Assembly (NCBI GenBank): GCA_045647945.1
Contig: JAZRNA010000028.1
Location: forward strand, 1 to 45,569
Source: Clostridia bacterium
GTDB lineage: Bacteria > Bacillota > Clostridia > Monoglobales > Monoglobaceae
DNA: 45,569 bases
Reading direction: 5' to 3'
Under the pieces are notes generated by a model that saw only the letters and a program-made list of their open reading frames with translations, was not told the origin of the DNA and ran no database searches. This document shows, piece after piece, positions 1 to 41,548 of this stretch (within the stretch, counting starts at the first letter, position 1; each line of letters begins with the position of its first letter). Position numbers and translations under genes: made by a program.

Positions 1-53
1 AAATGGCATAAAAGGTTTATATTTTAAGTATTTTAACATCCTATGACATTATC

Positions 54-69
54 ATGTTGTATACAACAT
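54..69. promoter_or_regulatory. Perfect 16-bp palindrome ATGTTGTATACAACAT upstream of spo0A, a possible operator
   Basis: Read directly: ATGTTGTA/TACAACAT is self-complementary. It lies about 70 bp upstream of the -35 of the spo0A promoter. The binding factor is unknown. Confidence 0.3.
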
Positions 70-137
70 ATTGTGACAATTGATGACAGGCACCACTATA
101 TCTAATAAAAATTTTGGAAAAAAGTGGAAAAAAGTAC

Positions 138-166
138 TTGACAAATTTGTTGCACATGGTTATAAT
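138..166 (+). promoter_or_regulatory. Sigma-A type promoter for spo0A
   Basis: TTGACA (138-143), a 17-nt spacer, then TATAAT (161-166). Both hexamers match consensus. It sits about 45 nt upstream of the spo0A RBS AAAGGAG. Confidence 0.6.
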
Positions 167-208
167 CTAACTGTAATTGGAAAATTTTAGAAAAAAGGAG
201 CAAAAAAT

Positions 209-1012
209 ATGGAAAAACAGATTAATGTACTAATTGCAGATGCTGACATAGAATATGCAGAAGTTTTAAGCCATAGTCTTTCGGCAGATTTTAAAATCAA
301 TGTGTGTGATATAGTGAGCAACGGATATCAGGTTATTGAAAAGGTGGATATACTAAAACCAGATGTAGTCATAATGGACGTGGTGTTGCCCAATATTGAT
401 GGTATAGGAATTCTTGAAAGATTCAAGAACAAGAAAAGGGAATTTGAAAACTTCCGCATGCCCAAAATTATCGTTTTGTCTACATTCAAACAGGACAGAA
501 CTGCTCAGGATTGCATAAACTTAGGTGCAAGTTATTATATGGTAAAACCAATAGGCAGTGATAATTTACGCAACACAATCAAACGTCTCTGTGACATAGG
601 TGAGGACAAGAAAGCCAGTATGAGTTTGAGCAAAAAGTACACATCGGACGAACATATTGATGTTGAGACTATGGTTACCGAAATTATTCACGAAATAGGT
701 ATTCCTGCACATATCAAAGGTTATCAGTATCTTCGTCATGCAATAATGCTTGTTATAGATAATCTGGATGTAATCAATTCCATAACAAAAACTCTTTATC
801 CCACAGTTGCACAGGACTTCCGCACAACCCCAAGCCGTGTTGAAAGGGCGATACGTCATGCGATAGAGGTCGCATGGGACAGAGGTGACACAGATGTTCT
901 GGATTCCATATTTGGTTATACTATCGCAACATCAAAGGGCAAGCCTACCAACTCAGAATTTATAGCAATGATTGCAGACCGCTTGAGATTGCAAATAAAG
1001 AATGCAAGCTAA
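209..1012 (+). CDS. spo0A: Sporulation master response regulator Spo0A
   Basis: N-terminal receiver domain (VLIADAD...[10 protein letters not shown]). C-terminal Spo0A-specific DNA-binding domain ([37 protein letters not shown]). AAGGAG-type RBS. Confidence 0.95.
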
Positions 1013-1020
1013 GAAAACTT

Positions 1021-1054
1021 AAAAAAACCCCGGCACAATCTGTGTCGGGGTTTT
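1021..1054. terminator. Bidirectional rho-independent terminator between spo0A and the convergent lysR-type gene
   Basis: An A7 run, the stem CCCCGGCACA/TGTGTCGGGG (one G-U pair), then TTTT. Confidence 0.8.
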
Positions 1055-1056
1055 AG

Positions 1057-1938
1057 TTATGCTACAATGCCAATAAGGTTCAAAAACGCTTTTGCAGCCA
1101 GAGACAACGAGCCATCATCCATGTATGCACAGCCGATACTGCGGGGTGGCAGAGGTTTGTCAAGGCTAAGGGGGTTGATTAATCCGTTATCAAGGGCTTC
1201 CTGTGAAAATTCTTTCACTACGCAGGCGACCCCAAGATGAATGGATGCAAACCTGATAAGCAAATCATATGCGGCAAGCTCGATTTGAGGGATAAGCTCA
1301 ATTTGGTTTTTTCTGAAAGTTCTGTCTAAAAACCGTCTTGAAGAAGAATTTTTTTCCAGAAGAATAAGAGGAAGTTGAGCAATCTCTGAACGTGAGTAGC
1401 TGGGTTTCGCTTTGAAATCCGGACCGGATACAAAGATATCATGTATCTCAAGGCAGGGTTTTATACACAATTCATCGTCGATGACAGGGAGGTTTACAAA
1501 AGCTAAATCTGCTTTGCCTTGTTTTACAAGCCACAGCATTTGAGATGAGTATGAATTGGACATCTCAATGCGTACACCGGGATAGGTTTCGTGGAATTTT
1601 TCCAAATATGGCATTAAAAAATGTGAGGTTATGGTATCCCCTGCAGCTATGGTCAAAGCACCGCTTTCAATATGTTGCAAGCGTTCAACCAGGGATTCGC
1701 CTTGTTCAATAGCTTGCATTGCAGTTTCAATCTTCTGGAACAATAATTCTCCCTCTTTTGTAAGGGTCGCACCCTTGCGTGAACGTACAAACAACTGAAT
1801 GTCTAAATCCTGCTCAAGCTGTCTTATGCATTGAGATATGGCAGATTGGGAAATATATAAATGCTGTGCAGCTGCAGAAAAGGATGCAAAACGGGCTGTT
1901 TCGTAGAAAATCCGGTAATAATCAAGTTTTGTTTTCAT
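1057..1938 (-). CDS. LysR-family transcriptional regulator
   Basis: Starts at the internal Met: MKTKLDYYRIFYETARFASFSAAAQHLYISQSAISQCIRQLEQDL (LysR helix-turn-helix) plus a substrate-binding domain. The ORF-track extension to 2193 overlaps the divergent gene and has no RBS. AGGAGC lies upstream of ATG 1938. Confidence 0.9.
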   Translation of the reverse strand: MKTKLDYYRIFYETARFASFSAAAQHLYISQSAISQCIRQLEQDLDIQLFVRSRKGATLTKEGELLFQKIETAMQAIEQGESLVERLQHIESGALTIAAGDTITSHFLMPYLEKFHETYPGVRIEMSNSYSSQMLWLVKQGKADLAFVNLPVIDDELCIKPCLEIHDIFVSGPDFKAKPSYSRSEIAQLPLILLEKNSSSRRFLDRTFRKNQIELIPQIELAAYDLLIRFASIHLGVACVVKEFSQEALDNGLINPLSLDKPLPPRSIGCAYMDDGSLSLAAKAFLNLIGIVA

Positions 1939-2044
1939 ATAAGCGCTCCTTATCACTGTAGTAAGTTTTATCTGCTTTACTAATATATATATTTGTATTA
2001 TAATTATAATGTAACAAAAAGTCAAGAACGGAGAGGATATTTCT

Positions 2045-3235
2045 ATGGCAAGAAAAGTAGGAACTATTTCCAGAGGTATAAGATGCCCCATTATCCGTGA
2101 GGGTGATGATATGGCGGCAATCGTAGTAAACAGTGTTATAGAGGCAGCAGAGGCGGAGGGATTTGAACTTCGCGACAGAGATGTTGTTGCCATAACCGAG
2201 TCGGTTGTTGCACGTTCTCAGGGCAACTATGCGTCTGTTGATGCTATTGCAGAAGATGTTAAGAATAAATTGGGTGGAGAGACAATCGGTGTAATCTTCC
2301 CCATACTCAGCCGAAACAGATTTGCTATATGCCTGCGTGGTATTGCAAAAGGCGTAAAAAAGATTGTTCTTATGCTTAATTATCCCAGTGATGAGGTTGG
2401 CAATGCACTTGTATCACTTGACCAGTTGGATGAAGCGGGAATCAATCCCTATTCTGATGTTCTGACCGAAGAAAAATATCGCGAACTCTTTGGCGAAAAT
2501 CCCCATCCTTTCACAGGTGTGGACTATATAAAGTATTATGGCGATTTGATTCGTTCCTGTGGTGCAGAGGCGGAAATCATTCTGGCAAATGACCCCAGGG
2601 TTATCCTTAGATATACAGACAGCGTGCTTAACTGTGATATACACAGCAGAGCTCGCACAAAGCGTATCTTGAAAGATGCCGGTGCTAAATGTGTTGTGGG
2701 TCTTGATGAAATACTGACTCAGCCGGTTAATGGCAGCGGATATAATTCCAAGTACGGTCTTTTGGGTTCAAATAAATCTACAGAGGATGCAATCAAACTG
2801 TTCCCCAATGAATGTTTTGATATGGTAAATGATATCCAAAAACAATTCCTTGAACGCACAGGAAAGCATATGGAAGTTATGGTTTATGGTGATGGTGCAT
2901 TCAGAGACCCGGTGGGCAAAATCTGGGAGCTTGCAGACCCAGTTGTGTCACCTGCTTATACCAAAGGTCTTGAGGGAACACCAAATGAGCTTAAGCTCAA
3001 ATACCTTGCAGACAATGATTTTGCTGATTTGAAAGGCGAGGAACTTAAAAAAGCAATCGAGACAGCAATTCGCGAAAAGGATAACGATTTGGTGGGCAAT
3101 ATGGCATCTCAGGGAACAACACCACGTCGTCTGACAGACTTGATTGGTTCACTTTGCGACCTTACAAGCGGCTCCGGCGACAAGGGAACACCCATAGTTC
3201 TGGTACAAGGATATTTTGACAACCTTACAGACTAA
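2045..3235 (+). CDS. CofE-like (F420-0:gamma-glutamyl ligase family) protein of unknown role
   Basis: The N-terminus (RGIRCPIIREGDD.AAIV...DRDVVAITESVVARSQGN) resembles the CofE/FbiB ligase fold as I recall it. 396 aa with a GGAGAGGA RBS. Family assignment is from memory only. Confidence 0.55.
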   Translation: MARKVGTISRGIRCPIIREGDDMAAIVVNSVIEAAEAEGFELRDRDVVAITESVVARSQGNYASVDAIAEDVKNKLGGETIGVIFPILSRNRFAICLRGIAKGVKKIVLMLNYPSDEVGNALVSLDQLDEAGINPYSDVLTEEKYRELFGENPHPFTGVDYIKYYGDLIRSCGAEAEIILANDPRVILRYTDSVLNCDIHSRARTKRILKDAGAKCVVGLDEILTQPVNGSGYNSKYGLLGSNKSTEDAIKLFPNECFDMVNDIQKQFLERTGKHMEVMVYGDGAFRDPVGKIWELADPVVSPAYTKGLEGTPNELKLKYLADNDFADLKGEELKKAIETAIREKDNDLVGNMASQGTTPRRLTDLIGSLCDLTSGSGDKGTPIVLVQGYFDNLTD

Positions 3236-3250
3236 AATTACAGTGTTTAA

Positions 3251-3287
3251 AATGGCAATATCTGATTGTAGATGTTGCCATTTTTTG
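3251..3287 (+). terminator. Rho-independent terminator after the CofE-like gene
   Basis: Stem AATGGCAA...TTGCCATT followed by a T6 run. A TTGCCA-N17-TGgTATAAT promoter (3275-3303) overlaps its 3' arm. Confidence 0.7.
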
Positions 3288-3420
3288 TTTGGTGTGGTAT
3301 AATGTCGAGATAAGAGTGAGCTATGAGTTTTATGGTCAGAAATAGGTGATGTTAAAGTCGTTTAGGAAACATAAAATATATTATATCGAATAATAGCAAA
3401 ATTTTAAAAGGAGAAACTAT

Positions 3421-3612
3421 ATGAAAAAGAAATTATTCAAATCAAAAACAGACAAAAAGCTTTGTGGAGTATGTGGAGGTGTTGCAGCATATTTTGATAT
3501 TGATTCTACGTTGGTGCGACTTGCATGGGTTGTATTTACGCTTTTGGGTGGGTCTGGTATTTTGGCGTACATAATTGCGGCGATTGTTATGCCTGCACAA
3601 AGCGAATATTGA
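3421..3612 (+). CDS. PspC-domain membrane protein
   Basis: [45 protein letters not shown] is a typical PspC domain. AAGGAG RBS. Confidence 0.8.
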
Positions 3613-3780
3613 TTAAATAACTCATCCGGATAACATCTATAAATTAGCAATAACACAAAGAGACGATTATATTTCATTGTTAAATATATTAAATTTTTTG
3701 TAAGCTCTTGACATAAGCATATTTTAAAAGGTAAAATGGTTAAGAAGTAAAAAAAATGGAAAAACTATGCGGAGGTAAAA

Positions 3781-4869
3781 ATGAAATATTCTAAACAATT
3801 TGAAGAAAAAAAATCAGTTCTGCAGAGCAAGACGGTTTCTGTTGGTTTTGATGGGTTTGTAGACTTGGTAATCAGACCAGTTAAGACACGCACAGATGAG
3901 AAAACCTGTACATATTTTCCCACTATTGACCAGTTTGGTGAAAAAATTACAAGTCTTGCAGGTAGGAGCGGTAATATTGAATTAATAATAAACAGCACAG
4001 ACTTTGGCGGTTGTGGACCACACTATGCAAATGGACTTGCCAATATGGGTGTGGGTTGTACATGTGTAGGTGCTATGGGTTATCCTGAAAAAAATGCAGT
4101 ATTTAACCTTAATCCCAACTGCAAAACCATAAGCGTCAGTGAACCGGGTTATTCATATGTTTTTGAGTTCGGTGACGGCAAAATAATAATGAGTGATGTT
4201 GAAAAAATCAGCCAGCTCAGATGGAACGACCTGATTGAACGTATAAGTATTGATGAATTGGTTGAAATATTTGATTCAGCAGACATTATTACTTTGGTTA
4301 ACTGGAGTTATCTTGTACACTTTCATGAGATATATGAACAGTTTTTAGAAAAAATCATGCCCAGGCTCAGCAAAAAGGAAAGAAAAATATATATTGATAT
4401 TGCTGACTGTGCTAAGCGTCAGCCAGAAGAAATAAAGGCGGCGCTTAAGATGTTTGGTCGTTACAGTCAGTATGCACCAACCTATCTGGGACTCAATAAA
4501 ACCGAGGCTATGATTATGCATTCAATTTTGTGCGAGGGTGAATATGATGGTTCTATTACTGTTGCAAGGGCGATTAAGGAATATTCAGGCATTGGCACAG
4601 TTGTGATTCATCCGGTGGACAGCTCTGCTGCGGTATTTGACGGTGGAGAGATAGAGGTTCAGGGGATTCTTTGCGAAAAACCCAAGAAGACAACAGGTGG
4701 CGGAGACAACTTTAACTCCGGATTCTGTGCAGGACTTTTGGCGGGATTGGATATAAAGAGTTGTTTGATAAGCGGTATGACCACATCATATCTTTATGTT
4801 AAGAATGGAAAGTGCAATAGCTTTGAGGACATATGCGAGGCTATGAAGATGTATGATGACCGCGATTGA
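3781..4869 (+). CDS. Ribokinase-superfamily (PfkB-like) sugar kinase, atypical
   Basis: C-terminal TTGGGDNFNSGFCAGLLAG matches the anion-hole/catalytic-Asp motif of ribokinase-fold kinases. The rest is divergent and the substrate is unknown. Confidence 0.55.
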   Translation: MKYSKQFEEKKSVLQSKTVSVGFDGFVDLVIRPVKTRTDEKTCTYFPTIDQFGEKITSLAGRSGNIELIINSTDFGGCGPHYANGLANMGVGCTCVGAMGYPEKNAVFNLNPNCKTISVSEPGYSYVFEFGDGKIIMSDVEKISQLRWNDLIERISIDELVEIFDSADIITLVNWSYLVHFHEIYEQFLEKIMPRLSKKERKIYIDIADCAKRQPEEIKAALKMFGRYSQYAPTYLGLNKTEAMIMHSILCEGEYDGSITVARAIKEYSGIGTVVIHPVDSSAAVFDGGEIEVQGILCEKPKKTTGGGDNFNSGFCAGLLAGLDIKSCLISGMTTSYLYVKNGKCNSFEDICEAMKMYDDRD

Positions 4870-4895
4870 TTGAAAAGTGCTGTGGGAGAAGATAT

Positions 4896-5825
4896 ATGAA
4901 AGTGTTAACAATTACACTTAACCCTGCATTTGATATGCATTGTAATATTGAGAATCTGCAATTATATAAAGAAAATTATGTAACCTCTTTCATGAAACAT
5001 GCAGGGGGAAAAGGAATCAATATTTCACGTGCGTTAACCGGATTTGGAGTCGAAAATACGGCCGTGTGTGTCTTGGGGGATTCCGGTGGACAAGAGTTCC
5101 TAAGGCTTTTGCAGGAGGATGCAATTTGTTGCAAGCACATAATGACAGAGGGCAGAATAAGGGAAAACATAACAATTCATTCCTGCGGCAGGGAAACCAG
5201 AATAAGTTTTGAAGGTTTTGAAATAAACAAAAAGATTTTTGATGACCTGTATGAGATTGTTAAAGGGCATCAGTGTGACGATTTTGTGGTTACATTTACG
5301 GGTAGACTATGCAAAGGTATATCCAATACGGAGGCTGGTGATTTTCTTAAGAAAATCAAAACTCTTGGTGCAAAACTGATTGTTGATTGCAATTCGTTCA
5401 CCATTGAGGAACTCACAGAAATCAGTCCCTATCTTATAAAACCCAACGAACAGGAAATTTCACAGCTCTTGGGGTGTGAGGTTAAAACAGAGGACGAAGC
5501 TTTTGCTGCAGCTCGGAGATTGTGCAACTCATGTATAGAAAATGTTATAGTTTCGCTGGGGTCTAAAGGATTTGTTTTTTGCAGCAAAAACAGTAAATTA
5601 AGAATAAAGGTTCCTGAAATAGTACCGGTTTCAACAATAGGAGCAGGGGACAGTCTCATTGCAGGATTTATTGCAGGAATTTCAGGCGGCAGAAATATGG
5701 CAGATGCTCTGAAACTTGCTGCATCCTTTGGAACTGCAGCTTGCCTGACGGAGGGAACAAACCCTCCATGCAAGAGTGACATTCTTGCTGTTGAAAAAGA
5801 AGTCATTGTTGAAGAAATAGCATGA
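4896..5825 (+). CDS. 1-phosphofructokinase family hexose kinase (FruK/LacC/PfkB)
   Basis: MKVLTITLNPAFD, GGKGINISRAL and GAGDSLIAGFIAG motifs. Start placed at ATG 4896, which follows GGGAGA, rather than at the track's TTG 4866. Confidence 0.8.
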   Translation: MKVLTITLNPAFDMHCNIENLQLYKENYVTSFMKHAGGKGINISRALTGFGVENTAVCVLGDSGGQEFLRLLQEDAICCKHIMTEGRIRENITIHSCGRETRISFEGFEINKKIFDDLYEIVKGHQCDDFVVTFTGRLCKGISNTEAGDFLKKIKTLGAKLIVDCNSFTIEELTEISPYLIKPNEQEISQLLGCEVKTEDEAFAAARRLCNSCIENVIVSLGSKGFVFCSKNSKLRIKVPEIVPVSTIGAGDSLIAGFIAGISGGRNMADALKLAASFGTAACLTEGTNPPCKSDILAVEKEVIVEEIA

Positions 5826-5885
5826 TGGGAATGATACGTCTTTATCTGGGGCAGACTTTGCCCGGAGGCTTTTAAAGGATAAAAC

Positions 5886-5922
5886 AAAAAGGACTTATGC
5901 CATTGAGCATAAGTCCTTTTTT
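5886..5922. terminator. Bidirectional terminator between the kinase gene and convergent galM
   Basis: An A5 run, the stem GGACTTATGC/GCATAAGTCC with a 6-nt loop, then T6. Confidence 0.8.
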
Positions 5923-5923
5923 G

Positions 5924-6955
5924 CTATTTTGAAAATTTATATTCGGTTGTTGTATCGTACTTTTCACCTTTTTTAAGAATAGGTGATGTGAAGTGAGGAA
6001 TGTTGATTGCGTTGGGGAAGTACTGAGTTTCAAGACACATGCCTGCATATTTACCATATTCGGCTCCGTTTTTGTAGGAATCACCTTTTTCGAGGAAGTT
6101 TCCTGTATAAATCTGAACACCTGGCAGGTCGGTGTACATATCCATCTGTATGCCAGTTTTGTCACCTTTCAGTGTTGCTGCATGACGAAAACCCATTCCG
6201 TCAAGAACAAAGTTGTGGTCTATGCCGTTTTCTACTATTACAATTTGCTCGAAATCCGAGTCAAGAGCTATGCCAACAGCCTTTTCTTCAGTAAAGTCCA
6301 TAGGCGTTTGTGTTACAGTAAGAATTTCACCCGAAGGAATTCCTTCGTTGTCAGAGGGAGTGAAGAAGTGACTGTTAAGTTTGAACATATGGTCATGAAT
6401 TGTGCCACTGTTGTCGCCATTGAGATTAAAGTAAGAGTGGTTTGTAAGATTCATAATAGTATCCTGATCGCAGGTCGCTTCGTAATGAATCTTAAGTGAG
6501 TTGTTGTTTGTGACGGTATATGTAACCTGAATTTTTGCTTCACCGGGGAAACCTTCGTCGCCGTCGGGACTTGTCAGGGAAAGAATCAAAGATGGTTCTT
6601 CATCATCAACGGGTTGTGCTGACCATACTTTTTTGCCAAAACCAATTATACCACCATGAAGATTTGCCTGATAATTATTTACTGCGAGTTTGTATATTTT
6701 GTCGTTTAATGCAAATTCAGCATTGGCAATTCTGTTGGAATTTCGGCCTACAAGAATACCGAAATTTTCGGGATTATCAAGATAACTGTCAATTTTGTTG
6801 TGTGCAAGAACAACATCTGTTCCGTCGAAAACAAGACGCTGAAGCACTCCACCAAAATTAAGAATTTCTGCAAACATACCGTTTTTGTTTTCAAGTTTGT
6901 AATTTGTTATTTTTTGTCCATGAATTTCTCCGAAAATCGATGTAGTTATACTCAT
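5924..6955 (-). CDS. galM: Aldose 1-epimerase (galactose mutarotase)
   Basis: 343 aa with the mutarotase pattern (NFGGVLQ, GRNSNRIANAEF, NNYQANLHGG, TNHSYFNL, MCLETQYFPNA). AAGGAG RBS. Confidence 0.9.
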   Translation of the reverse strand: MSITTSIFGEIHGQKITNYKLENKNGMFAEILNFGGVLQRLVFDGTDVVLAHNKIDSYLDNPENFGILVGRNSNRIANAEFALNDKIYKLAVNNYQANLHGGIIGFGKKVWSAQPVDDEEPSLILSLTSPDGDEGFPGEAKIQVTYTVTNNNSLKIHYEATCDQDTIMNLTNHSYFNLNGDNSGTIHDHMFKLNSHFFTPSDNEGIPSGEILTVTQTPMDFTEEKAVGIALDSDFEQIVIVENGIDHNFVLDGMGFRHAATLKGDKTGIQMDMYTDLPGVQIYTGNFLEKGDSYKNGAEYGKYAGMCLETQYFPNAINIPHFTSPILKKGEKYDTTTEYKFSK

Positions 6956-6968
6956 TTTTTATGCTCCT

Positions 6969-8555: not shown

Positions 8556-10151
8556 ATGGCAGAAAAGTATCAGGCACTTTACAGAAAGTGGAGACCGTTG
8601 ATATTTGAAGATGTTGTGGGGCAGGACCATGTGTCAGAAACCCTGAAGAACAGTGTGGTTTCAGGCAGAATTGCCCATGCCTATTTGTTTTGCGGAACCC
8701 GTGGAACAGGCAAGACTTCCTCGGCAAAGATATTTTCCCGTGCGGTAAACTGTCTGTCACCTAATGATGGGAACCCTTGCAATGAATGTGATGTATGCTG
8801 TGGAATTCTGGACGGAAGTATCCTTGATGTTTATGAAATGGATGCTGCCAGCAACAGCGGCATTGACAATATACGTGAAATACGTGATGAAGTAATCTAC
8901 AGTCCCACAGGCAGCAAGTATAAGGTTTATATTGTTGACGAGGCACATATGCTGACAACAGAGGCGTTTAATGCTTTGCTGAAAACCCTTGAGGAGCCTC
9001 CGGAACATGTAATTTTTATTCTTGCAACAACCGAGCCACACAAGATTCCTGCAACCATTCTTTCACGTTGTCAGCGATTTGATTTCAGGCGTATATCCAT
9101 AAATGATATCGAAAGACGGCTCAATAAAATCATTAAGGAAGAGAATATTGCAATAACACCTGACGCTTTGGAACTTGTGGCAGAGCTTGCAGATGGCTCT
9201 ATGCGTGATGGACTTAGTATTCTTGACCAATGCGTTGCCTTTTCTAAGGGTGAACTTCGTTATGACGATGTTGTTGATATTGTGGGTGTAGCCGACAGAA
9301 GAGTTTTGTTTTCAATAGTTGACAGTATAAGTGAACTTGATACACAGACTGCACTTAACAGAACTGACGAATTCTTGAAAAAAGGCAAAGAGGCATCGGA
9401 CTTTATTGAAGAATTGATAGCTCATTTCAGGGCATTGATGATTTGCAAGTCTACAGATGCACCAAATGAAATTTTGGAAAAAGCAGAAGAAGTTGTTGAA
9501 AAATTTAAAGTTCAGGCAGGAAAGTTTGATATAGACCGAATTATAGGTGCGGTTTCTGTTTTAGGTGAGTTTTTGTTGCAGTCAAAAAAAATGTCAGCAC
9601 CTACAGTAGCTGTGGAAATGGCTGTTGTTAAACTGTGCAGCCCAGGAGATGGAGGAAGTCACTCAGAACTTGCACTCCGTATTGAGAAACTTGAAAAAGA
9701 ACTTGAAGAAATAAAGAAAAGTGGTGTTGCAGCGACCAAAAAGACTGCCGCAAAATCTGACATAACTGAACGAGTTGTTGCAGAGCAGGTCAAAGATGCT
9801 GTACCCCATATAGAAAATGCTGTTACATGGTTAAAATGGCGTGATGCCCTGAAAACAGTGAAAGAAAAAAGCAAGAGTCTTTATACGTTTTTATTCAATG
9901 CTACGGCACTGTATTTTGGTGATGAGATTGAACTTGTGCTTACGGGTGACTTGGCATATAATAAGATAAATACTGCTGAGGGCAAGGAATACCTTGCAGA
10001 ACTTTTTTCTCAAATTGAGGGCACAACACTCAGGGTTGTGGTTTCAAAGGCAGGAAATCTTAAACAACGAAACGGACAAACTGCAACAGTTATGGATATC
10101 GCAGCAAAAAAAGATTTGCTGGGTGACAGAATGACTGTTGTTGAAGATTAG
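8556..10151 (+). CDS. dnaX: DNA polymerase III subunit gamma/tau
   Basis: MAEKYQALYRKWRP..F.DVVGQ.HV, GTRGTGKTS (Walker A), zinc module CNECDVC, YIVDEAHMLT, SRCQRFDF. Start at ATG 8556 after GAGGTG. Confidence 0.95.
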   Translation: MAEKYQALYRKWRPLIFEDVVGQDHVSETLKNSVVSGRIAHAYLFCGTRGTGKTSSAKIFSRAVNCLSPNDGNPCNECDVCCGILDGSILDVYEMDAASNSGIDNIREIRDEVIYSPTGSKYKVYIVDEAHMLTTEAFNALLKTLEEPPEHVIFILATTEPHKIPATILSRCQRFDFRRISINDIERRLNKIIKEENIAITPDALELVAELADGSMRDGLSILDQCVAFSKGELRYDDVVDIVGVADRRVLFSIVDSISELDTQTALNRTDEFLKKGKEASDFIEELIAHFRALMICKSTDAPNEILEKAEEVVEKFKVQAGKFDIDRIIGAVSVLGEFLLQSKKMSAPTVAVEMAVVKLCSPGDGGSHSELALRIEKLEKELEEIKKSGVAATKKTAAKSDITERVVAEQVKDAVPHIENAVTWLKWRDALKTVKEKSKSLYTFLFNATALYFGDEIELVLTGDLAYNKINTAEGKEYLAELFSQIEGTTLRVVVSKAGNLKQRNGQTATVMDIAAKKDLLGDRMTVVED

Positions 10152-10181
10152 AAAAAATAAGCTAGAAAGGATTGAATATTT

Positions 10182-10535
10182 ATGGCAAAAGGTGGATTTC
10201 CAAGAGGTGGCATGCCCGGTGGCGGTGCCAATATGAATCAGATGCTCAAGCAGGCAAAGAAGATGCAGGAGCAGATGATGAAGATGCAGGAAGAAATGGA
10301 AGACAAGGTTCATGAGGCAACCTCCGGTGGTGGTGCTGTATCTGTCAAGATAAACGGAAAAAGAGAACTTCAGGAAATAAAAATCAGCCAGGAAGTTGTT
10401 GACCCTGATGATGTAGAAATGCTTGAGGACCTCATTATGGCAGCTGTGAATGAGGGTCTTCGCAAAGTTGATGAAAGTTCAGCAAGTGAGATGAGCAAGC
10501 TCACAGGGGGATTGAATATTCCTGGATTATTCTAG
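10182..10535 (+). CDS. ybaB: YbaB/EbfC family nucleoid-associated protein
   Basis: [16 protein letters not shown]...[20 protein letters not shown]...[18 protein letters not shown]. Conserved position after dnaX. Confidence 0.9.
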
Positions 10536-10543
10536 TATAAATT

Positions 10544-10581
10544 GGGCATCTATCCGCTGGATTTGAGCGGAGGGGATGCCC
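10544..10581 (+). terminator. Hairpin after ybaB, a possible terminator
   Basis: GGGCATC...GATGCCC with a nested CCGC/GCGG pair. The T tract after it is poor. Confidence 0.4.
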
Positions 10582-10622
10582 TGTATTACGTAAAATTGAA
10601 ATTCTGAGAGGGATGTTACATA

Positions 10623-12260
10623 ATGAAAAATTTTCAGCCAATGTTATTCAGTGATTTGAAAAACTACAGCTCAAGCCAATTAGTTAAAGATATTATTGCA
10701 GGTATTATCGTGGCAATAATAGCATTGCCTTTGTCCATAGCTTTGGCTATTGCGTCAGGTGTTGGTCCGGAAGCGGGTATTTACACAGCCATTGTTGCAG
10801 GTTTTATAACGGCGTTATTTGGCGGCAGCAGTGTCCAGATTACAGGACCTACAGCCGCTTTTGCAACCATCGTGGCCGGTATTGTTGCTCGGGAGGGACT
10901 TGAGGGAATGGCTCTGGCAACAATTGTTGCAGGTGTTATTCTTGTGCTGATGGGTGCATTTAAGCTGGGCAATCTTATAAGGTTTATACCTTTTACAATT
11001 ACAACGGGATTTACTGCAGGAATTGCTGTGACATTGGTAATCGGTCAGCTTAAAGATTTCTTTGGTGTTATATATCAAAACGGTGAAGCACCAATAGAAA
11101 CTGCCGAAAAATTAACAGCTTTCTTTGCCAATGCAGGCACGGTTAATATTCAGGCAATAGTTGTGGGATTGGTTTGCCTTGCTATACTAATTGTATGGCC
11201 CAAAATTTTTGACAAGATACCTGCATCACTTATTGCTGTGATTGCCGGCGTTGCCATGGTCAAAGGCTTTGATATGGAAGTTAATACAATAGGTGATTTG
11301 TATACTGTGGGACGTGAATTACCCGCATTCAATATGCCGTCAATCAGTTTATCGGCTGTGGTAAATATTTTCCCCGATGCATTGACTATTGCCTTGCTTG
11401 CAGGCATTGAATCGCTTCTTTCATGTGTGGTGGCTGATGGTATGGTAAACAAAAAACACCGTTCCAATACTGAACTCACAGCTCAGGGTATAGGCAACGT
11501 GTGTTCCGCAATGTTTGGTGGCATCCCTGCGACGGGTGCCATAGCAAGAACAGCGGCAAATATAAAGAATGGCGGAAGAACACCAATATCTGCTATGGTA
11601 CATTCGGTTGTTCTACTACTTGTCCTCGTTTTGCTGATGCCATATGCATCATGGATACCCATGCCTGCTATTGCAGCAATACTTATTCATGTTGCGTATA
11701 ATATGTGCCAGTGGAGGCAGTTTGTATATCTTGTAAAAACTTCACCAAAGAGTGATATTCTGATTCTTGTTGTAACATTTTTGCTTACAGTTGTTTTTGA
11801 CCTTGTGGTTGCCATTGAGGTGGGAGTTGTGATGGCGTGCATCCTCTTTATGAAACGTATGAGTGACGAAACAAAGATTGAAAGCTGGAAATATGTAAAA
11901 GAGAAAGAAACCGAAGAGACAGGGCTCAGACAGGTATCAAAGCATATAAGTGTTTATGAACTTTGCGGACCTATGTTCTTTGCGGTAAGCAGTCAAATTT
12001 TAGACATAAAAACAAAAGAATACACAAAGTGTGTAATCCTTAGAATGCGGTCAGTGATGTCATTGGATGCAGATGCACTCAGGAGCCTTGAACAGTTTGT
12101 TGACAGATGCAGTAAAAAGGGAATATCTGTGGTGTTTTCTCACGTTAATCCCCAACCTATGAAAGCGATGAAAAAATCAGGACTTTTTGAACTTGCGGGA
12201 GAGGAAAACTTCTGTGCTAATATTGACAAAGCCATTGAAAGGGCGGAAAGTTTTAGATAA
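10623..12260 (+). CDS. SulP-family anion transporter with C-terminal STAS domain
   Basis: A multi-TM N-terminus with typical SulP motifs (GIIVAIIALPLSIALAIASG, GGSSVQITGPTAA). The C-terminal STAS is also typical (VYELCGPMFFA...ILRMR.V..LD..AL..L). Confidence 0.9.
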   Translation: MKNFQPMLFSDLKNYSSSQLVKDIIAGIIVAIIALPLSIALAIASGVGPEAGIYTAIVAGFITALFGGSSVQITGPTAAFATIVAGIVAREGLEGMALATIVAGVILVLMGAFKLGNLIRFIPFTITTGFTAGIAVTLVIGQLKDFFGVIYQNGEAPIETAEKLTAFFANAGTVNIQAIVVGLVCLAILIVWPKIFDKIPASLIAVIAGVAMVKGFDMEVNTIGDLYTVGRELPAFNMPSISLSAVVNIFPDALTIALLAGIESLLSCVVADGMVNKKHRSNTELTAQGIGNVCSAMFGGIPATGAIARTAANIKNGGRTPISAMVHSVVLLLVLVLLMPYASWIPMPAIAAILIHVAYNMCQWRQFVYLVKTSPKSDILILVVTFLLTVVFDLVVAIEVGVVMACILFMKRMSDETKIESWKYVKEKETEETGLRQVSKHISVYELCGPMFFAVSSQILDIKTKEYTKCVILRMRSVMSLDADALRSLEQFVDRCSKKGISVVFSHVNPQPMKAMKKSGLFELAGEENFCANIDKAIERAESFR

Positions 12261-13145: not shown

Positions 13146-13152
13146 GATGAAT

Positions 13153-13188
13153 GCAAAGGCTTTTTTTAAAGCCTTTGCGTTTTTTTTT
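13153..13188 (+). terminator. Strong rho-independent terminator after the SulP-HIRAN/TPR operon
   Basis: GCAAAGGCTTT-TTTT-AAAGCCTTTGC followed by a T9 run. Confidence 0.85.
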
Positions 13189-13258
13189 GATGGCGGTTTG
13201 TATAAGAAAAAAATGGCAATACTCATGAAAAGAAGATTTTATCAGGAGGCGAAAGATT

Positions 13259-13426
13259 ATGAGAATAACCAGATTTGTGAACGGAAAGAAAATTGACGGC
13301 AAACTGGATAAAAGTATTGTTGTAGAAAATCAACTTATTTCAGGAACAATAAGTGAAATAAACAGACGATTCTTTGAGGCGAATACACATTCCACAAGAA
13401 AGGAAACTCCCAAAATAAATGATTAA
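13259..13426 (+). CDS. Small basic protein (55 aa) overlapping the recombinase start, a candidate recombination directionality factor
   Basis: Not in the ORF track because it is under 60 aa. AGGAGG (13244-13249) lies 9 nt before the ATG. Product: MRITRFVNGKKIDGKLDKSIVVENQLISGTISEINRRFFEANTHSTRKETPKIND. Its last 8 nt overlap the recombinase ATG (13419). Confidence 0.5.
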   Translation: MRITRFVNGKKIDGKLDKSIVVENQLISGTISEINRRFFEANTHSTRKETPKIND

Positions 13427-14786
13427 GCATGCTGCTATATATATACGGGTTTCTACCGATGCACAACGTGAAGAGGGGTATTCAATAGATGCCCAGAAAG
13501 AGATGCTGACAGCATATTGCGTTTCAAAATCAATACGTGATTATGAGTACTATATTGACGGCGGTTACAGTGGAAGCAACATAGAAAGACCTGAACTCAA
13601 ACGAATGATTGAGGATATAAAAAGGGGCAAAATAAGTTGCGTTCTTGTCTACAAACTGGACAGATTATCAAGAAGTCAAAAAGATACACTGTTTTTGATT
13701 GAGGATGTGTTCAACCCCTACGGTGTTGACTTTGTATCTCTTAATGAAAGCATGGATACATCAACACCCTTAGGCAGACTTATGCTTGGTATATTGTCGG
13801 CTTTTGCCCAACTTGAAAGGGAGAATATACGGGAACGAACCAGCATGGGGATGAAAGAACGAATAAAGGAAGGTTTTTGGATGGGAGGAGGTCGGGTTCC
13901 CTTTGGTTATGATTATGATGCAGACAAAGGTATTTTGGTGCCAAACAGCGACGCAGATACAGTGAGGAAGGTATATGAATTATATCTGAATGGGTATTCA
14001 ACCAATACTATTGCCAGAAGATTGGGACTTAGATACGAGAAACTTGCCAGACAGATTTTGATGCGAAAAACAAATGCGGGGATTATTGTATACAAAGGTG
14101 AAGAATATAAAGGCAAACATGAACCTATTATATCCTTGGAAACATATGAAAGGGCAATGCGGGCAATGGCAGAAAGGTCAGGGCAAAAACGTCCTGAAAG
14201 TGCATATTTACTGTCAGGACTTGTGAAATGCGGATATTGTGGGGCAAAAATGAGATATCAAAAATGGGGAAAGAACGGATATAAAATAGTGTGTTATTCC
14301 AAAGATAAAAGCAAGCCCCATCTTGTCAAGGACCCTGATTGTCCAAGTGAGGGTATATGGGCGGATGAGCTGGAGGATATTGTGAAAACGGACCTGTTTT
14401 CTTTGGGGTTAAAGGAAAGCAAGGACAAAAGGCATATGTCCGCAAATGAAAAAATACTTGATGTTCTTGAAAAGAGAAAGAAAAAAGTGGGAGAGAAATT
14501 GAAGAAACTGTATCTTGTTTATGCCGAGAGTGAGGATTTTGCCCTTGATGATGCGATAAAGGAAACCAAAGAGGAACTTGAAAAGCTTGAGGCTCAAATA
14601 CGAGTTGAAAAGGAACAGCAGGTGGTAAGCAAAACAGAAAAAGAGTTGAAAAAAAAGCTGTCAACATTAAAAGAAAGCTGGGATTTCATGACAGCCCACG
14701 AACAGCGCAGCATTGTAAGGAACTGCGTGCATGAAATAAAGGCAAAAGAGAATGATGTTAAAATATATTATAAACTGAACATCTGA
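13419..14786 (+). CDS. Large serine recombinase (SpoIVCA/SprA-like)
   Basis: AAIYIRVSTDAQ (catalytic Ser), VYKLDRLSRS, LERENIRERT, a recombinase domain, a Cys cluster CGYCG...CYS...DPDCP (zinc ribbon) and a C-terminal coiled coil. Confidence 0.95.
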   Translation: MIKHAAIYIRVSTDAQREEGYSIDAQKEMLTAYCVSKSIRDYEYYIDGGYSGSNIERPELKRMIEDIKRGKISCVLVYKLDRLSRSQKDTLFLIEDVFNPYGVDFVSLNESMDTSTPLGRLMLGILSAFAQLERENIRERTSMGMKERIKEGFWMGGGRVPFGYDYDADKGILVPNSDADTVRKVYELYLNGYSTNTIARRLGLRYEKLARQILMRKTNAGIIVYKGEEYKGKHEPIISLETYERAMRAMAERSGQKRPESAYLLSGLVKCGYCGAKMRYQKWGKNGYKIVCYSKDKSKPHLVKDPDCPSEGIWADELEDIVKTDLFSLGLKESKDKRHMSANEKILDVLEKRKKKVGEKLKKLYLVYAESEDFALDDAIKETKEELEKLEAQIRVEKEQQVVSKTEKELKKKLSTLKESWDFMTAHEQRSIVRNCVHEIKAKENDVKIYYKLNI

Positions 14787-14789
14787 TTT

Positions 14790-15095
14790 TCACCAAAGTA
14801 CAATCATTGGCACAGCGTACGTGGAAAACTTGACACCATGTGAGGTATCAAAGTTGTCCAAGGCTTTTATCAGTCCTATGCATCCCACCTGAAATAAATC
14901 ATCAATATTTTCGTTTTTGCCTCCAAACCGTTGCAATACACTGAGGACAAGTCTAAGGTTGCCATAAATAAATTCTTGACGTGCTGATGTATCTCCCTGT
15001 TCAATTTTTTTAAAAAGCTCTTGTTTTTGTTTTTCGTTTAGGAACGGAAGTTTGGATGTGTTTACTCCGCATATTTCAACTTTATTGATTAAAAT
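14790..15095 (-). pseudogene. sigG: 5' fragment of the sporulation sigma factor sigma-G gene (regions 1.2-2.4 only), a split or truncated gene
   Basis: Hand translation: (I)LINKVEICGVNTSKLPFLNEKQKQELFKKIEQGDTSARQEFIYGNLRLVLSVLQRFGGKNENIDDLFQVGCIGLIKALDNFDTSHGVKFSTYAVPMI then VLW-stop. NKVEICGV.TSKLP and the region 2 motifs are sigma-G hallmarks. Regions 3-4 (about 155 aa) are missing. ATT occupies the Met1 position, 9 nt after GAGGGG. Confidence 0.85.
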
Positions 15096-15130
15096 TTCAA
15101 TCAGCCCCTCTCAAAAATTTACTATTACAG

Positions 15131-15157
15131 TATTTCACCGATGCAAAAAACATATAC
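15131..15157 (-). promoter_or_regulatory. Possible forespore (sigma-F/G type) promoter upstream of the sigG fragment
   Basis: On the minus strand: GTATA (15157-15153), 13 nt, then GGTGAAATA (15139-15131). The -10 fits GGHRARHTX as I recall it, but the spacer is 2 nt shorter than the 15 nt I recall. Confidence 0.3.
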
Positions 15158-15246
15158 CGTCTAAAGTATAAAATAAAAAATCTGAAGCATTGATAGAATA
15201 TCAACAAAAGCCCTTGCATATAGTTGCAATTAGAGAGGTGATTTTG

Positions 15247-15486
15247 TTGAATTGCAGCATAAATGAACTCAAAACCAAAGAGGTGATAAACATATCAGAT
15301 GGGGCAAGACTTGGATATGTGTCGGATGTGGAAATCAATTTGGCGGATGGCAGGCTCACAGCGATTATAGTTCCCGGTGCTTATAGATTGATGGGCTTTT
15401 TGGGAAAAGATGATGATATAATAATTAAGTGGGAAAACATAAAAAAAATCGGTGATGACATAATAATTATTGAAAATGTAAAATGA
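15247..15486 (+). CDS. YlmC/YmxH-family (PRC-barrel) sporulation protein
   Basis: INELKTKEVINISDGARLGYVSDVEINLADGRLTAIIVPG matches the family pattern. The likely TTG start at 15247 (or 15244) follows GAGGTG. The track's start at 15190 is probably too long. Confidence 0.8.
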   Translation: MNCSINELKTKEVINISDGARLGYVSDVEINLADGRLTAIIVPGAYRLMGFLGKDDDIIIKWENIKKIGDDIIIIENVK

Positions 15487-40760: not shown

Positions 40761-40787
40761 AAGGATTGGGAAAGGTACCCAATCCTT
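40761..40787. terminator. Bidirectional terminator hairpin between xerD and convergent sigK
   Basis: AAGGATTGGG-aaaggta-CCCAATCCTT followed by a T-rich run. Confidence 0.75.
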
Positions 40788-41490
40788 ATTTTATTTGTTG
40801 CATATCGTCACATATTCCAAATTTTAGCTTGCCGATAGCCTTTTTCTCAAGGCGTGATACATAAGAGCGGGAAATCCCCATAATCTCTGCTATTTCCGAT
40901 TGTGTCCGCTCGTTGCCGTCCCACAATCCATAACGCATTTTTATTATTTCACGCTCCCTGTCATCAAGACGAGTTTTTATGTTTTCATATAGTTTTTTTA
41001 TTTGTGCACGGTCATCAATTTCTTTTATAACGTCTTCCTCGTCAGAGCCAATGATGTCCATGAGGAGTATTTGATTTCCCTCTTTATCTGTACCAATCGG
41101 GTCATTAAGAGAAACATCACCCTGACACTTTTTGTTATTTCGCATAAGCATCAGTATTTCATTTTCGATACATCTTGCAGCGTATGTAACGAGACGTGTT
41201 CCTTTGGAACTGTCAAAGCTGCTGATGCCCTTTATCAAACCGATTGTCCCAAGGGATATAAGGTCTTCGTTGTCGCGGACATTGGCGGAATATTTTTTTG
41301 CAATATGTGCCACCAGACGCAGATTATGCTCAATCAGCTTGTTTTTTGCATCAATATCCCCATTCTCCATCTTTTCTATGTAGTATCTTTCCTCTTTGGC
41401 ACTGAGGGGTTTGGGGAAAGAATTGCTTCCTGACACAAAAGATATAATAAAAACCAAAGATTCGATAAGGGTGTCAAATATACCAAACAT
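40786..41490 (-). CDS. sigK: Sporulation sigma factor pro-sigma-K, uninterrupted
   Basis: Pro-sequence MFGIFDTLIESLVFIISFVSGSNSFPKPLS, then LIEHNLRLVAHIAKKY, DLISLGTIGLIKG, YAARCIENEILM, DPIGTDKEGN and ISRSYVSRLEKKA. All four regions are present. ATG 41490 lies 9 nt after TGGAG. Confidence 0.9.
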   Translation of the reverse strand: MFGIFDTLIESLVFIISFVSGSNSFPKPLSAKEERYYIEKMENGDIDAKNKLIEHNLRLVAHIAKKYSANVRDNEDLISLGTIGLIKGISSFDSSKGTRLVTYAARCIENEILMLMRNNKKCQGDVSLNDPIGTDKEGNQILLMDIIGSDEEDVIKEIDDRAQIKKLYENIKTRLDDREREIIKMRYGLWDGNERTQSEIAEIMGISRSYVSRLEKKAIGKLKFGICDDMQQIK

Positions 41491-41548
41491 AAATATACGC
41501 TCCAATCTGCCAAGCTGCTACAAACAGCTTAAGAGATAATATATATTC

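Follow-up and report, generated by a model that had tools for sequence, protein, structure and literature searches.

Why does the gene of a forespore sigma factor end at about codon 97 and meet, stop codon against stop codon, the gene of a large serine recombinase? The question is raised by sigG in a stretch of 45,569 nucleotides (nt) from a bacterium of the Clostridia (Monoglobaceae; contig JAZRNA010000028.1 of GenBank assembly GCA_045647945.1), which in its full length is referred to below as the window. Sigma-G is a sigma factor of the forespore, and sigG is thus not one of the mother-cell-specific genes by which intervening elements are otherwise defined. On balance it is probable that a conserved recombinase switch keeps sigG in two pieces and that the gene is rebuilt by a regulated, reversible reaction. 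The junction and its immediate flanks contain the following genes.

13259-13426, plus strand: open reading frame (ORF) of 55 amino acids (aa) with the motif MRITRFVNGKK...VN.R, overlapping the recombinase start by 8 nt
13419-14786, plus strand: large serine recombinase of 455 aa with Resolvase, Recombinase and Zn_ribbon_recom domains (Pfam PF00239, PF07508 and PF13408)
14790-15095, minus strand: 5' half of sigG, comprising residues 1-97 (regions 1.2 to part of 2.4), three codons of a predicted attachment-site (att) arm and a stop
15190-15486, plus strand: sporulation gene of the ylmC/ymxH family (NCBIfam TIGR02888, 87.7 bits), divergent from the sigG 5' half and marking the host side

Residues 4-100 of Bacillus subtilis SigG align to window positions 15086-14799 on the minus strand with 65% identity (tblastn, E 4e-40). 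The assignment was confirmed independently with NCBIfam, in which the top model for the fragment is the SigG equivalog NF006071 (166.6 bits); TIGR02850 (SigG) gives 155.3 bits, compared with 90 bits for SigF and 73 bits for SigK. Only positions 3-99 of the 258 in the SigG model are covered, and the score therefore lies under the full-length cut-off. Pfam identifies Sigma70_r2 only. Regions 3-4 of SigG found no tblastn match anywhere in the 45.6-kb window, the sole other sigma gene of which is sigK (40786-41505, minus strand), and the window's sigG is not a complete protein. A sequence-only reading had placed the break at about codon 97, at a large-serine-recombinase junction, and on this tblastn, NCBIfam, Pfam and the frame of the ORF agree. 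The last codon derived from SigG is Met97 (14805-14807), while the final three codons (the I-V-L-W region) and the stop consist of recombinase-site DNA. The minus-strand frame is open between the stops at 15111-15113 and 14790-14792 and contains no ATG, GTG or TTG start ahead of NKVEICGV; the recombinase stop (14784-14786) sits 3 nt from that of the fragment. The lack of a canonical start and the 3-nt spacing, both described earlier, are confirmed in the sequence.

The recombinase has the three domains of a large serine recombinase and a length within the usual range of about 450-600 aa. It matches the PHROG 95 integrase with 406 bits and the catalytic domain of the TP901-1 integrase in PDB with E 2e-37, and is 43-49% identical to the integrases of phiFC1/EFC-1, BL3 and streptococcal phages, while its match to the NCBIfam model of XisF is weak (134.6 bits, under the cut-off of 375). 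The enzyme had been called SpoIVCA-like, which is right as far as a large serine recombinase at the edge of a gene is concerned, but it is closer to the TP901-1/phiFC1 phage integrases than to SpoIVCA specifically.

Configuration A, in which the 3' end of the recombinase gene abuts a convergent sigG 5' half, was found in 41 fetched loci from independent assemblies, the window included (L and P numbers below denote loci and proteins fetched from databases as relatives of the window). The skin-like edge geometry proposed for a forespore gene is thereby borne out, the junction being identical in these 41 loci. It recurs in assemblies from JGI, ENA, NCBI and Logan, for which differing assemblers were used, and in more than 20 metagenome-assembled genomes (MAGs) and metagenome contigs, which disposes of the assembly chimera that had been considered. 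The best 120 protein matches to the 106-aa fragment (71-96% identity) are all 83-181 aa long, many on contigs of 40-190 kb, and break off alike, with ...STYAVP(M/I) and then x-V-x-W and the stop. A scan for the recombinase in one genome per GTDB species gave 286 relatives. The window is not the isolated case it had seemed but one member of a large family for which this sigG codon is the target.

The window's own clade was defined as 23 loci with recombinases 70-96% identical to that of the window. The block of small ORF, recombinase, attL, sigG 5' half and ylmC is constant in all of them, and in most it is followed by pncB, prs, rluD and further host genes, as at 15.5-27 kb in the window. Nucleotide homology of the clade loci to the window begins exactly at the recombinase start. 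The recombinase is intact in 23 of 23 members and has diverged in step with host proteins (Pearson 0.64-0.79), which is consistent with vertical inheritance; together with the small ORF and the att half-site it appears to have been passed on vertically. The DNA on the recombinase side is of another kind than that of a prophage. In the window and in L004 it carries genes for a TPR-HIRAN protein and SulP, ybaB, dnaX and rlmL, and in the window it continues to spo0A; in most other clade loci it carries carB, pyrC, a ParA-like gene, the operon of a 2-oxoacid:ferredoxin oxidoreductase (POR), a class IV aminotransferase and an amidohydrolase. Hence, of the skin-like arrangement that had been proposed, the edge geometry stands, but the DNA on the recombinase side is core chromosome and not a dispensable element. 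Left of rlmL, the window (1-6968) and L004 (1-3580) diverge, and in L010 (4335-5453) only 0.8 kb separates rlmL from the recombinase. Among close relatives, the side next to the recombinase is apparently a rearrangement hotspot.

The sigG 5' half is preceded by predicted signals for its expression.

15131-15157, minus strand: predicted forespore-type sigG promoter, GTATA (15157-15153), a 13-nt spacer and GGTGAAATA (15139-15131)
15112-15105, minus strand: ribosome-binding site (RBS) of sigG, GAGAGGGG
15095-15093, minus strand: probable ATT start of sigG, 9 nt past the RBS

GTATA-N13-GGTGAAATA, the RBS and the ATT are all kept in an upstream alignment of the 23 clade members and outgroups. We take this promoter to resemble the published sigmaF-type consensus. 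The sigG promoter of Clostridioides difficile has been described as sigmaF-like, with a G upstream of the -10 box (PMC3789822), and the window's promoter fits this description. The conserved ATT is likely, by its position, to be the start codon of the 5' half. It is present at the same position in most clade members, some of which offer TTG one codon later instead, and it may be a low-efficiency start for sigma-G.

Comparison of 92 codons in 21 genomes gave a median proportion of synonymous differences (pS) of 0.73, which is saturated, and of nonsynonymous differences (pN) of 0.095. Where the synonymous rate dS is finite, the ratio of nonsynonymous to synonymous rates (dN/dS) is about 0.05, and region 2 is invariant. 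Because of the low dN/dS, the invariant region 2 and the retained promoter, RBS and start, the 5' half is not a decaying remnant, and the suggestion that sigG had been inactivated in a lineage losing sporulation does not hold for this clade. Gene conversion from an intact paralogue is an unlikely source of the low dN/dS, as no full-length close homologue is present among the best 120 matches. A phage-encoded sigma factor resembling sigF or sigG was rejected, since the fragment lies in conserved host synteny.

Judged by its sequence, the junction of the window is an att site, attL, with the crossover in the Pro96 codon.

14787-14807, no strand assigned: recombinase-proximal P-type half-site of the predicted attL, TTTTCACCAAAGTACAATCAT on the plus strand, from which the truncated sigG takes its final codons and its stop
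14808-14810, minus strand: Pro96 codon, CCA, with the putative crossover dinucleotide CC (GG at 14809-14810 on the plus strand)
14811-14830, minus strand: B half-site of the predicted attL, TTTTCCACGTACGCTGTG, within the sigG codons (K)FSTYAV and mirroring the P arm

A half-site of consensus TTTC.AC.AA.G.ACAT(T/C)(C/T)AT follows directly after the recombinase stop in about 80 loci. In the 23 clade members the P arm, which is non-coding, is kept for ~21 nt, after which conservation collapses, the pattern expected of a protein-binding site; the B half-site is invariant or changed only synonymously. The anatomy of the sites is clearest in L026, a MAG of the Defluviitaleaceae, in which the two sigG halves are on the same strand and are separated by 2.5 kb of DNA that includes the recombinase, both attL and attR being present. 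Its left junction reads ...TATGCTGTACCAATG joined to AATGTCATTAAGCGAAA and its right junction TTTTCGTCTAATGGCATTCATACCAATG joined to ATAATAGGTGAAAT. When the outer arms are joined, the sigG codons A-V-P-M-I-I-G-E are restored and with them an intact sigG attB, and when the inner arms are joined an attP results, with 19-20-nt imperfect inverted arms around ACCA. The CC of Pro96 is the symmetry centre of this rebuilt attP and of the intact attP in L068, L223 and L225, and by this symmetry the staggered cut is provisionally placed at CC. Short att sites made of inverted half-sites round a central dinucleotide are accordingly seen in the window (attL, 14787-14830) and in its relatives. The sigG 3' half of L026 matches SigG positions 95-257 (295.9 bits), and the two halves together exceed the NCBIfam cut-off.

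The attB of the family is formed by the sigG codons F-S-T-Y-A-V-P-M-I-I-G-E-I (junction string ...GCTGTGCCAATGATTATTGG...). The codons F-S-T (TTTTCCAC) and G-E-I (GGTGAAAT; GGTGAAA) make an inverted repeat that resembles the phage arms, and sigG is therefore a natural target. In several relatives the P arm gives an in-frame ATG, and the 3' halves (L026 11386, P0125, P0158, P0170 and P0236) are called as proteins starting with M(T/A)(F/L/S)IPMIIGEIRR; this ATG is probably a by-product of the half-site ...ATG(A/G)CATTCAT.

Elements at the same codon range from miniature insertions to phages. Configuration B, found in 39 loci, consists of the recombinase followed by a co-directional sigG 3' half (residues 96-258), and is distinguished from configuration A by the way the central CC/GG is oriented with respect to the recombinase gene. 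In L026, L159 and L237 sigG is split into in-frame halves that flank the element in direct orientation; the window offers the 5' half only. The insert of L159 (750-1343; Ga0183095_10584, 91 kb) is 0.6 kb long, has both att arms and no recombinase, and holds one reverse-strand ORF, GNAT-like by eye; it is to be regarded as a non-autonomous miniature element or else as a locked remnant. The element of L237 is about 9 kb long and contains TnpV, AAA_25 and SLFN genes. The only obvious cargo of the 2.5-kb element of L026 is tRNA-Thr(GGT) at 9512-9587 and tRNA-Trp(CCA) at 9629-9701. Prophages are found at the sigG codon on IMG/VR contigs of 27-156 kb. L224 and L084 derive from a single sample, and their arms match; they are apparently the opposite ends of one large prophage, of which one end carries NrdD/NrdG, ligase and endolysin-like genes and the other tape-measure and tail-fibre genes. 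Unintegrated forms, with an intact attP directly after the recombinase, are represented by L068 and by two viral contigs, L223 of 147 kb and L225 of 52 kb.

Two further genes accompany the recombinases. A homologue of 40-55 aa of the window's small ORF, M(K/R)ITR(F/Y)(V/I)NGKK...VN.R, lies immediately 5' of the recombinase in nearly all members of the family, those outside sigG included. A conserved ORF of 185-230 aa beginning MTRKQA always adjoins the recombinase-distal att arm, at the following positions.

L026 8889-9446: MTRKQA ORF
L237 250-720: MTRKQA ORF
L068 1417-2037: MTRKQA ORF
L084 14243-13749: MTRKQA ORF
L108 5303-4818: MTRKQA ORF
L172 929-447: MTRKQA ORF
L225 2470-2997: MTRKQA ORF

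Pfam, NCBIfam and PHROG give it a weak sub-threshold match to HNH_repeat only, for the copy of L026. In configuration B it follows directly on the truncated sigG 5' half, at a distance of about 18 nt, and would therefore be transcribed from the sigG promoter.

Neither a sigG 3' half nor an MTRKQA ORF is present in the window, over 14.8 kb to the left and 30 kb to the right of the junction, or within 10 kb in any clade locus. Searches with the C-terminal halves of L026 and L191 as protein queries gave Defluviitaleaceae-like and Acetivibrio-like sigG and not the 3' half of the clade. A metagenome scan for the attR pattern gave no clade member among the 120 matches listed, and scans of viral contigs gave no contig with both ends of configuration A. 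Exact searches with the recombinase and the TPR-HIRAN protein of the window gave no recorded match. To either side of the junction the GC skew is positive, and it does not discriminate between the geometries considered below.

How, then, could sigma-G be made? Selection acts on the gene half as well as on the recombinase and its site, and the cell must therefore mend the split when it needs sigma-G. As the forespore, in which sigma-G is active, is germ line, and as essential genes adjoin the junction, this repair must be reversible or otherwise non-destructive. The switch would descend from temperate phages and small integrative elements using the sigG attB. The clade would retain only the recombinase, the small ORF and one att half-site beside the 5' half, the 3' half with its partner site lying at some other place, at a distance of over 14.8 kb on the left or over 30 kb on the right. 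Production of sigma-G would need recombination of attL with attR by the recombinase together with a recombination directionality factor (RDF), and the joining would give ...STYAVPM-IIGEIRR... in frame. In one geometry a large inversion would take place, as expected if a chromosomal rearrangement had split an ancestral sigG prophage and left attL and attR inverted; in the other an excised circle would stay in the non-dividing forespore and be reintegrated by the recombinase alone after germination. Inversion is somewhat more likely than excision with reintegration, and in either geometry the recombinase alone would reset the split after germination. We infer the occurrence, place, timing and geometry of the recombination, as well as the identity of the RDF.

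RDFs have no common sequence family. The 55-aa ORF of the window, which has no match in Pfam, NCBIfam or PHROG, is by its position and conservation a candidate RDF or accessory protein, and is our best guess at the RDF within the window. Its overlap with the recombinase gene suggests that the two are co-expressed, and its size is comparable to that of GirX, an RDF of 42 aa (PMC5595907). Recombination of attL with attR requires an RDF in this enzyme family, the precedent being the GirC integrase, which alone integrates and together with GirX excises (PMC5595907). The MTRKQA ORF is possibly a second candidate RDF, or an excision trigger, in the relatives.

A more specific version of the switch is offered tentatively, as a possibility only. 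Here the firing of sigmaF would lead recombinase and RDF to invert, or to excise and retain, a large block of core DNA and so to rebuild sigG, and after germination the recombinase alone would restore the split and the growth-optimised gene order, the whole acting as a self-resetting germ-line latch. Such a latch could couple sigma-G synthesis to completion of chromosome translocation, both att sites being needed in the forespore, and in co-directional elements such as L026 the sigG promoter would trigger excision via the MTRKQA ORF.

Several observations weigh against a regulated switch. The 3' half of sigG in the window's clade was not located, and its existence, distance and orientation are inferred. 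No ON state, whether as an intact sigG or as a recombinase followed by attP, occurs in the 23 clade assemblies, all of which are split. A divergent intact second sigG, below about 73% identity to the fragment, may exist in the clade. Upstream of the small ORF (13146-13258 in the window and its equivalents in L001-L023) the terminator of the preceding gene is followed by a conserved -10-like box, G(G/T)CAATAATA, about 10 nt ahead of the small-ORF RBS; this box alone is conserved, no -35 box recurs consistently, and the sequence thus gives no support for expression of the small ORF and recombinase specifically in the forespore. Many relatives on viral contigs are sufficiently explained by plain prophage integration that inactivates sigG. 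Finally, no case is known to us in which core DNA, on a megabase or multi-kb scale, undergoes programmed rearrangement at each sporulation.

The alternative that survives best shares its molecular mechanism with the regulated switch and differs only in timing and control. In a stochastic ON/OFF switch, the reaction would flip in a few vegetative cells, sporulation could be completed in the ON cells only, their spores would inherit an intact sigG and the recombinase would later reset it, as a form of bet-hedging on sporulation capacity. The want of a convincing forespore promoter ahead of the small ORF and recombinase, together with their suggested co-expression, is in keeping with such a switch, which would also maintain selection on both gene halves equally well. 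It nevertheless remains unlikely: the 23 clade assemblies contain no ON-state contig, though a minority state is rarely assembled, and inversion would be its only possible geometry, excision in dividing cells being lethal if essential genes lie between the sites.

Ordinary integration of phages or other mobile elements without host function, with sigG as a safe attB, by which lysogens would simply lose sigma-G and the window would be a decayed remnant, is quite unlikely for the clade. It describes many members of the wider family well, since these are true prophages or free phages with tail, NrdD and ligase genes, viral contigs of 27-156 kb and attP. Decayed remnants also exist: L153 (10700-11392, minus strand) has the att arm and the first ~30 codons of a sigG 3' half (IPMIMGEIRRFLRDSSSVRVSRSMRD...), followed by unrelated sequence, and shows what a dead junction looks like. 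In the window's clade, however, 5' half, promoter and att half-site are kept despite saturated synonymous sites, and the recombinase, which in a dead remnant would have decayed, is intact and diverges together with the host.

It is very unlikely that sigma-G is a two-piece factor, in which a 97-residue N-terminal fragment and a separate C-terminal fragment, begun at the ATG of the P arm with leaders such as MTFIPM..., would assemble with no DNA rearrangement. Both halves are indeed kept as ORFs, and the 3' halves of relatives start with the att-encoded ATG. But the break falls within the helix of region 2.4, between AVPM and IIGEIRR, rather than between domains; in L026 the att-encoded ATG has no RBS ahead of it; the recombinase is conserved intact beside the break together with its predicted binding site; and the halves of L026 are flanked by a complete, excision-competent pair of attL and attR. 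An artefact or pseudogene, whether through misassembly of the junction or as the decaying copy of a sigG that is intact elsewhere, can practically be dismissed, for although the window by itself and a fragment with no canonical start would allow it, the junction recurs across four sources of assemblies, dN/dS is about 0.05 and the best 120 matches include no full-length close homologue.

Known systems share parts of this arrangement. The skin element of sigK in B. subtilis and C. difficile, with its recombinase SpoIVCA, also splits a sporulation sigma gene in region 2, with a large serine recombinase at the very edge and att sites that are inverted repeats round a short core; the orientation of skin relative to the gene is variable (Galperin preprint). 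It differs in that sigK acts in the terminal mother cell, where excision is not inherited, whereas sigG belongs to the forespore and the germ line, and in that skin is dispensable, prophage-like DNA, whereas the recombinase side of the window is core chromosome that includes dnaX. SPbeta with SprA-SprB (in spsM) and gin with GirC-GirX (in gerE) resemble the window in edge geometry and enzyme class, and the occurrence of an active prophage (SPbeta) and of the non-phage gin as intervening elements parallels the range from phage to 2.5-kb element at sigG. In both, the integrase integrates when alone and excises when joined by a small RDF. Both lie in mother-cell genes and produce their RDF from a mother-cell promoter, whereas the RDFs at sigG are candidates only and a conserved third gene, the MTRKQA ORF, lies at the other att arm. 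Skin, SPbeta and gin all interrupt mother-cell genes, and the element is lost only from the terminal cell (PMC4191935, PMC13492144).

The closest functional analogue for a germ-line setting is active lysogeny, as in Listeria phi10403S in comK and SpyCIM1 at mutL, in which precise excision restores the gene, the element is kept and it then reintegrates (PMC13492144). There too a regulatory gene is interrupted in cells that have descendants, but the elements are discrete prophages kept as episomes, whereas in the window's clade it is core genome that intervenes, and the trigger would be sporulation. The heterocyst elements of Anabaena (fdxN with XisF, nifD and hupL) are likewise cases of programmed gene reconstitution by site-specific recombination, XisF being a large serine recombinase, but they act in terminal cells and are lost only there. 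The Bxb1 'recombinase addressable data' module is an engineered set-reset latch of integrase and RDF that spans a few hundred base pairs. If the att sites at sigG are inverted, the integrase alone would likewise set attL/attR there and the integrase with RDF would reset attB/attP, with no loss of DNA. No description of a natural chromosomal latch controlling a developmental sigma factor was found in the literature searched, and full-text searches found no report of a sigG-intervening element. To our knowledge, all known programmed rearrangements that reconstitute genes in spore formers and cyanobacteria occur in a terminal cell, the edited genome of which is discarded. In the survey by Galperin et al. 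sigK is the only split gene, and sigG is taken as intact in all spore formers. The chemistry is known; what is new is the target compartment and, in this clade, the core-genome context.

If the interpretation is correct, the conserved and selected split of sigG would for the first time place such a rearrangement in the forespore, from which the next generation arises, and it would provide a testable system for the editing and resetting of a germ-line genome, with defined att sites, a recombinase and two RDF candidates. It would also make sigG a major attachment site of phages and mobile elements in gut Clostridia, with a bearing on sporulation capacity and on the transmission of commensals. 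Split sigG genes are now annotated as truncated sigma-70 proteins. The family further offers new pairs of integrase and att sites, possibly including a natural set-reset pair, for genome engineering.

Junctions that are mirror images of the window's occur in other lineages. In the lineage of L191, L258 and L259, seen in three assemblies and with one contig 617 kb long, the sigG 3' half, ylmC and nrdR come after a bare P-type arm, on the other side of which lie ruvX, an ABC transporter, ksgA, PEPCK and polysaccharide-synthesis genes. The 3'-half junction of L183 is flanked by gltX and a PcrA/UvrD helicase gene. At least three lineages carry sigG halves with essential core genes on the inner flank.

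The position of ylmC also varies. It lies directly downstream of sigG, in part with nrdR, in L240, L191 and L137, and upstream of the sigG 5' half and divergent from it in the whole of the window's clade and in L040 and L060 of the Lachnospiraceae. As a record of inversion history this position was rejected, because no single recombination at the att core explains both arrangements; either sigG has been inverted on the spot or the genes compared are paralogues of the ylmC/ymxH type. The order ftsZ-spoIIGA-sigE-sigG-ylmC-nrdR in L240 represents the unbroken locus. In this long-read assembly sigG (10001-10773) is called as two adjacent ORFs of 117 and 130 aa, most likely through a frameshift error and not a recombinase split. 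In L256 (54-1039; P0090), a close relative of the clade on a low-coverage contig of 1.4 kb, sigG is intact at codon 97 and is broken at about residue 155, next to a convergent gene of the repressor-like HTH_19 type, which suggests a second, different insertion site in sigG. Within the window itself, spo0A (209-1012) is intact, and so is sigK, which encodes 239 aa (TIGR02846, 336.6 bits) and has no skin-type interruption; both are consistent with a sporulation-competent lineage.

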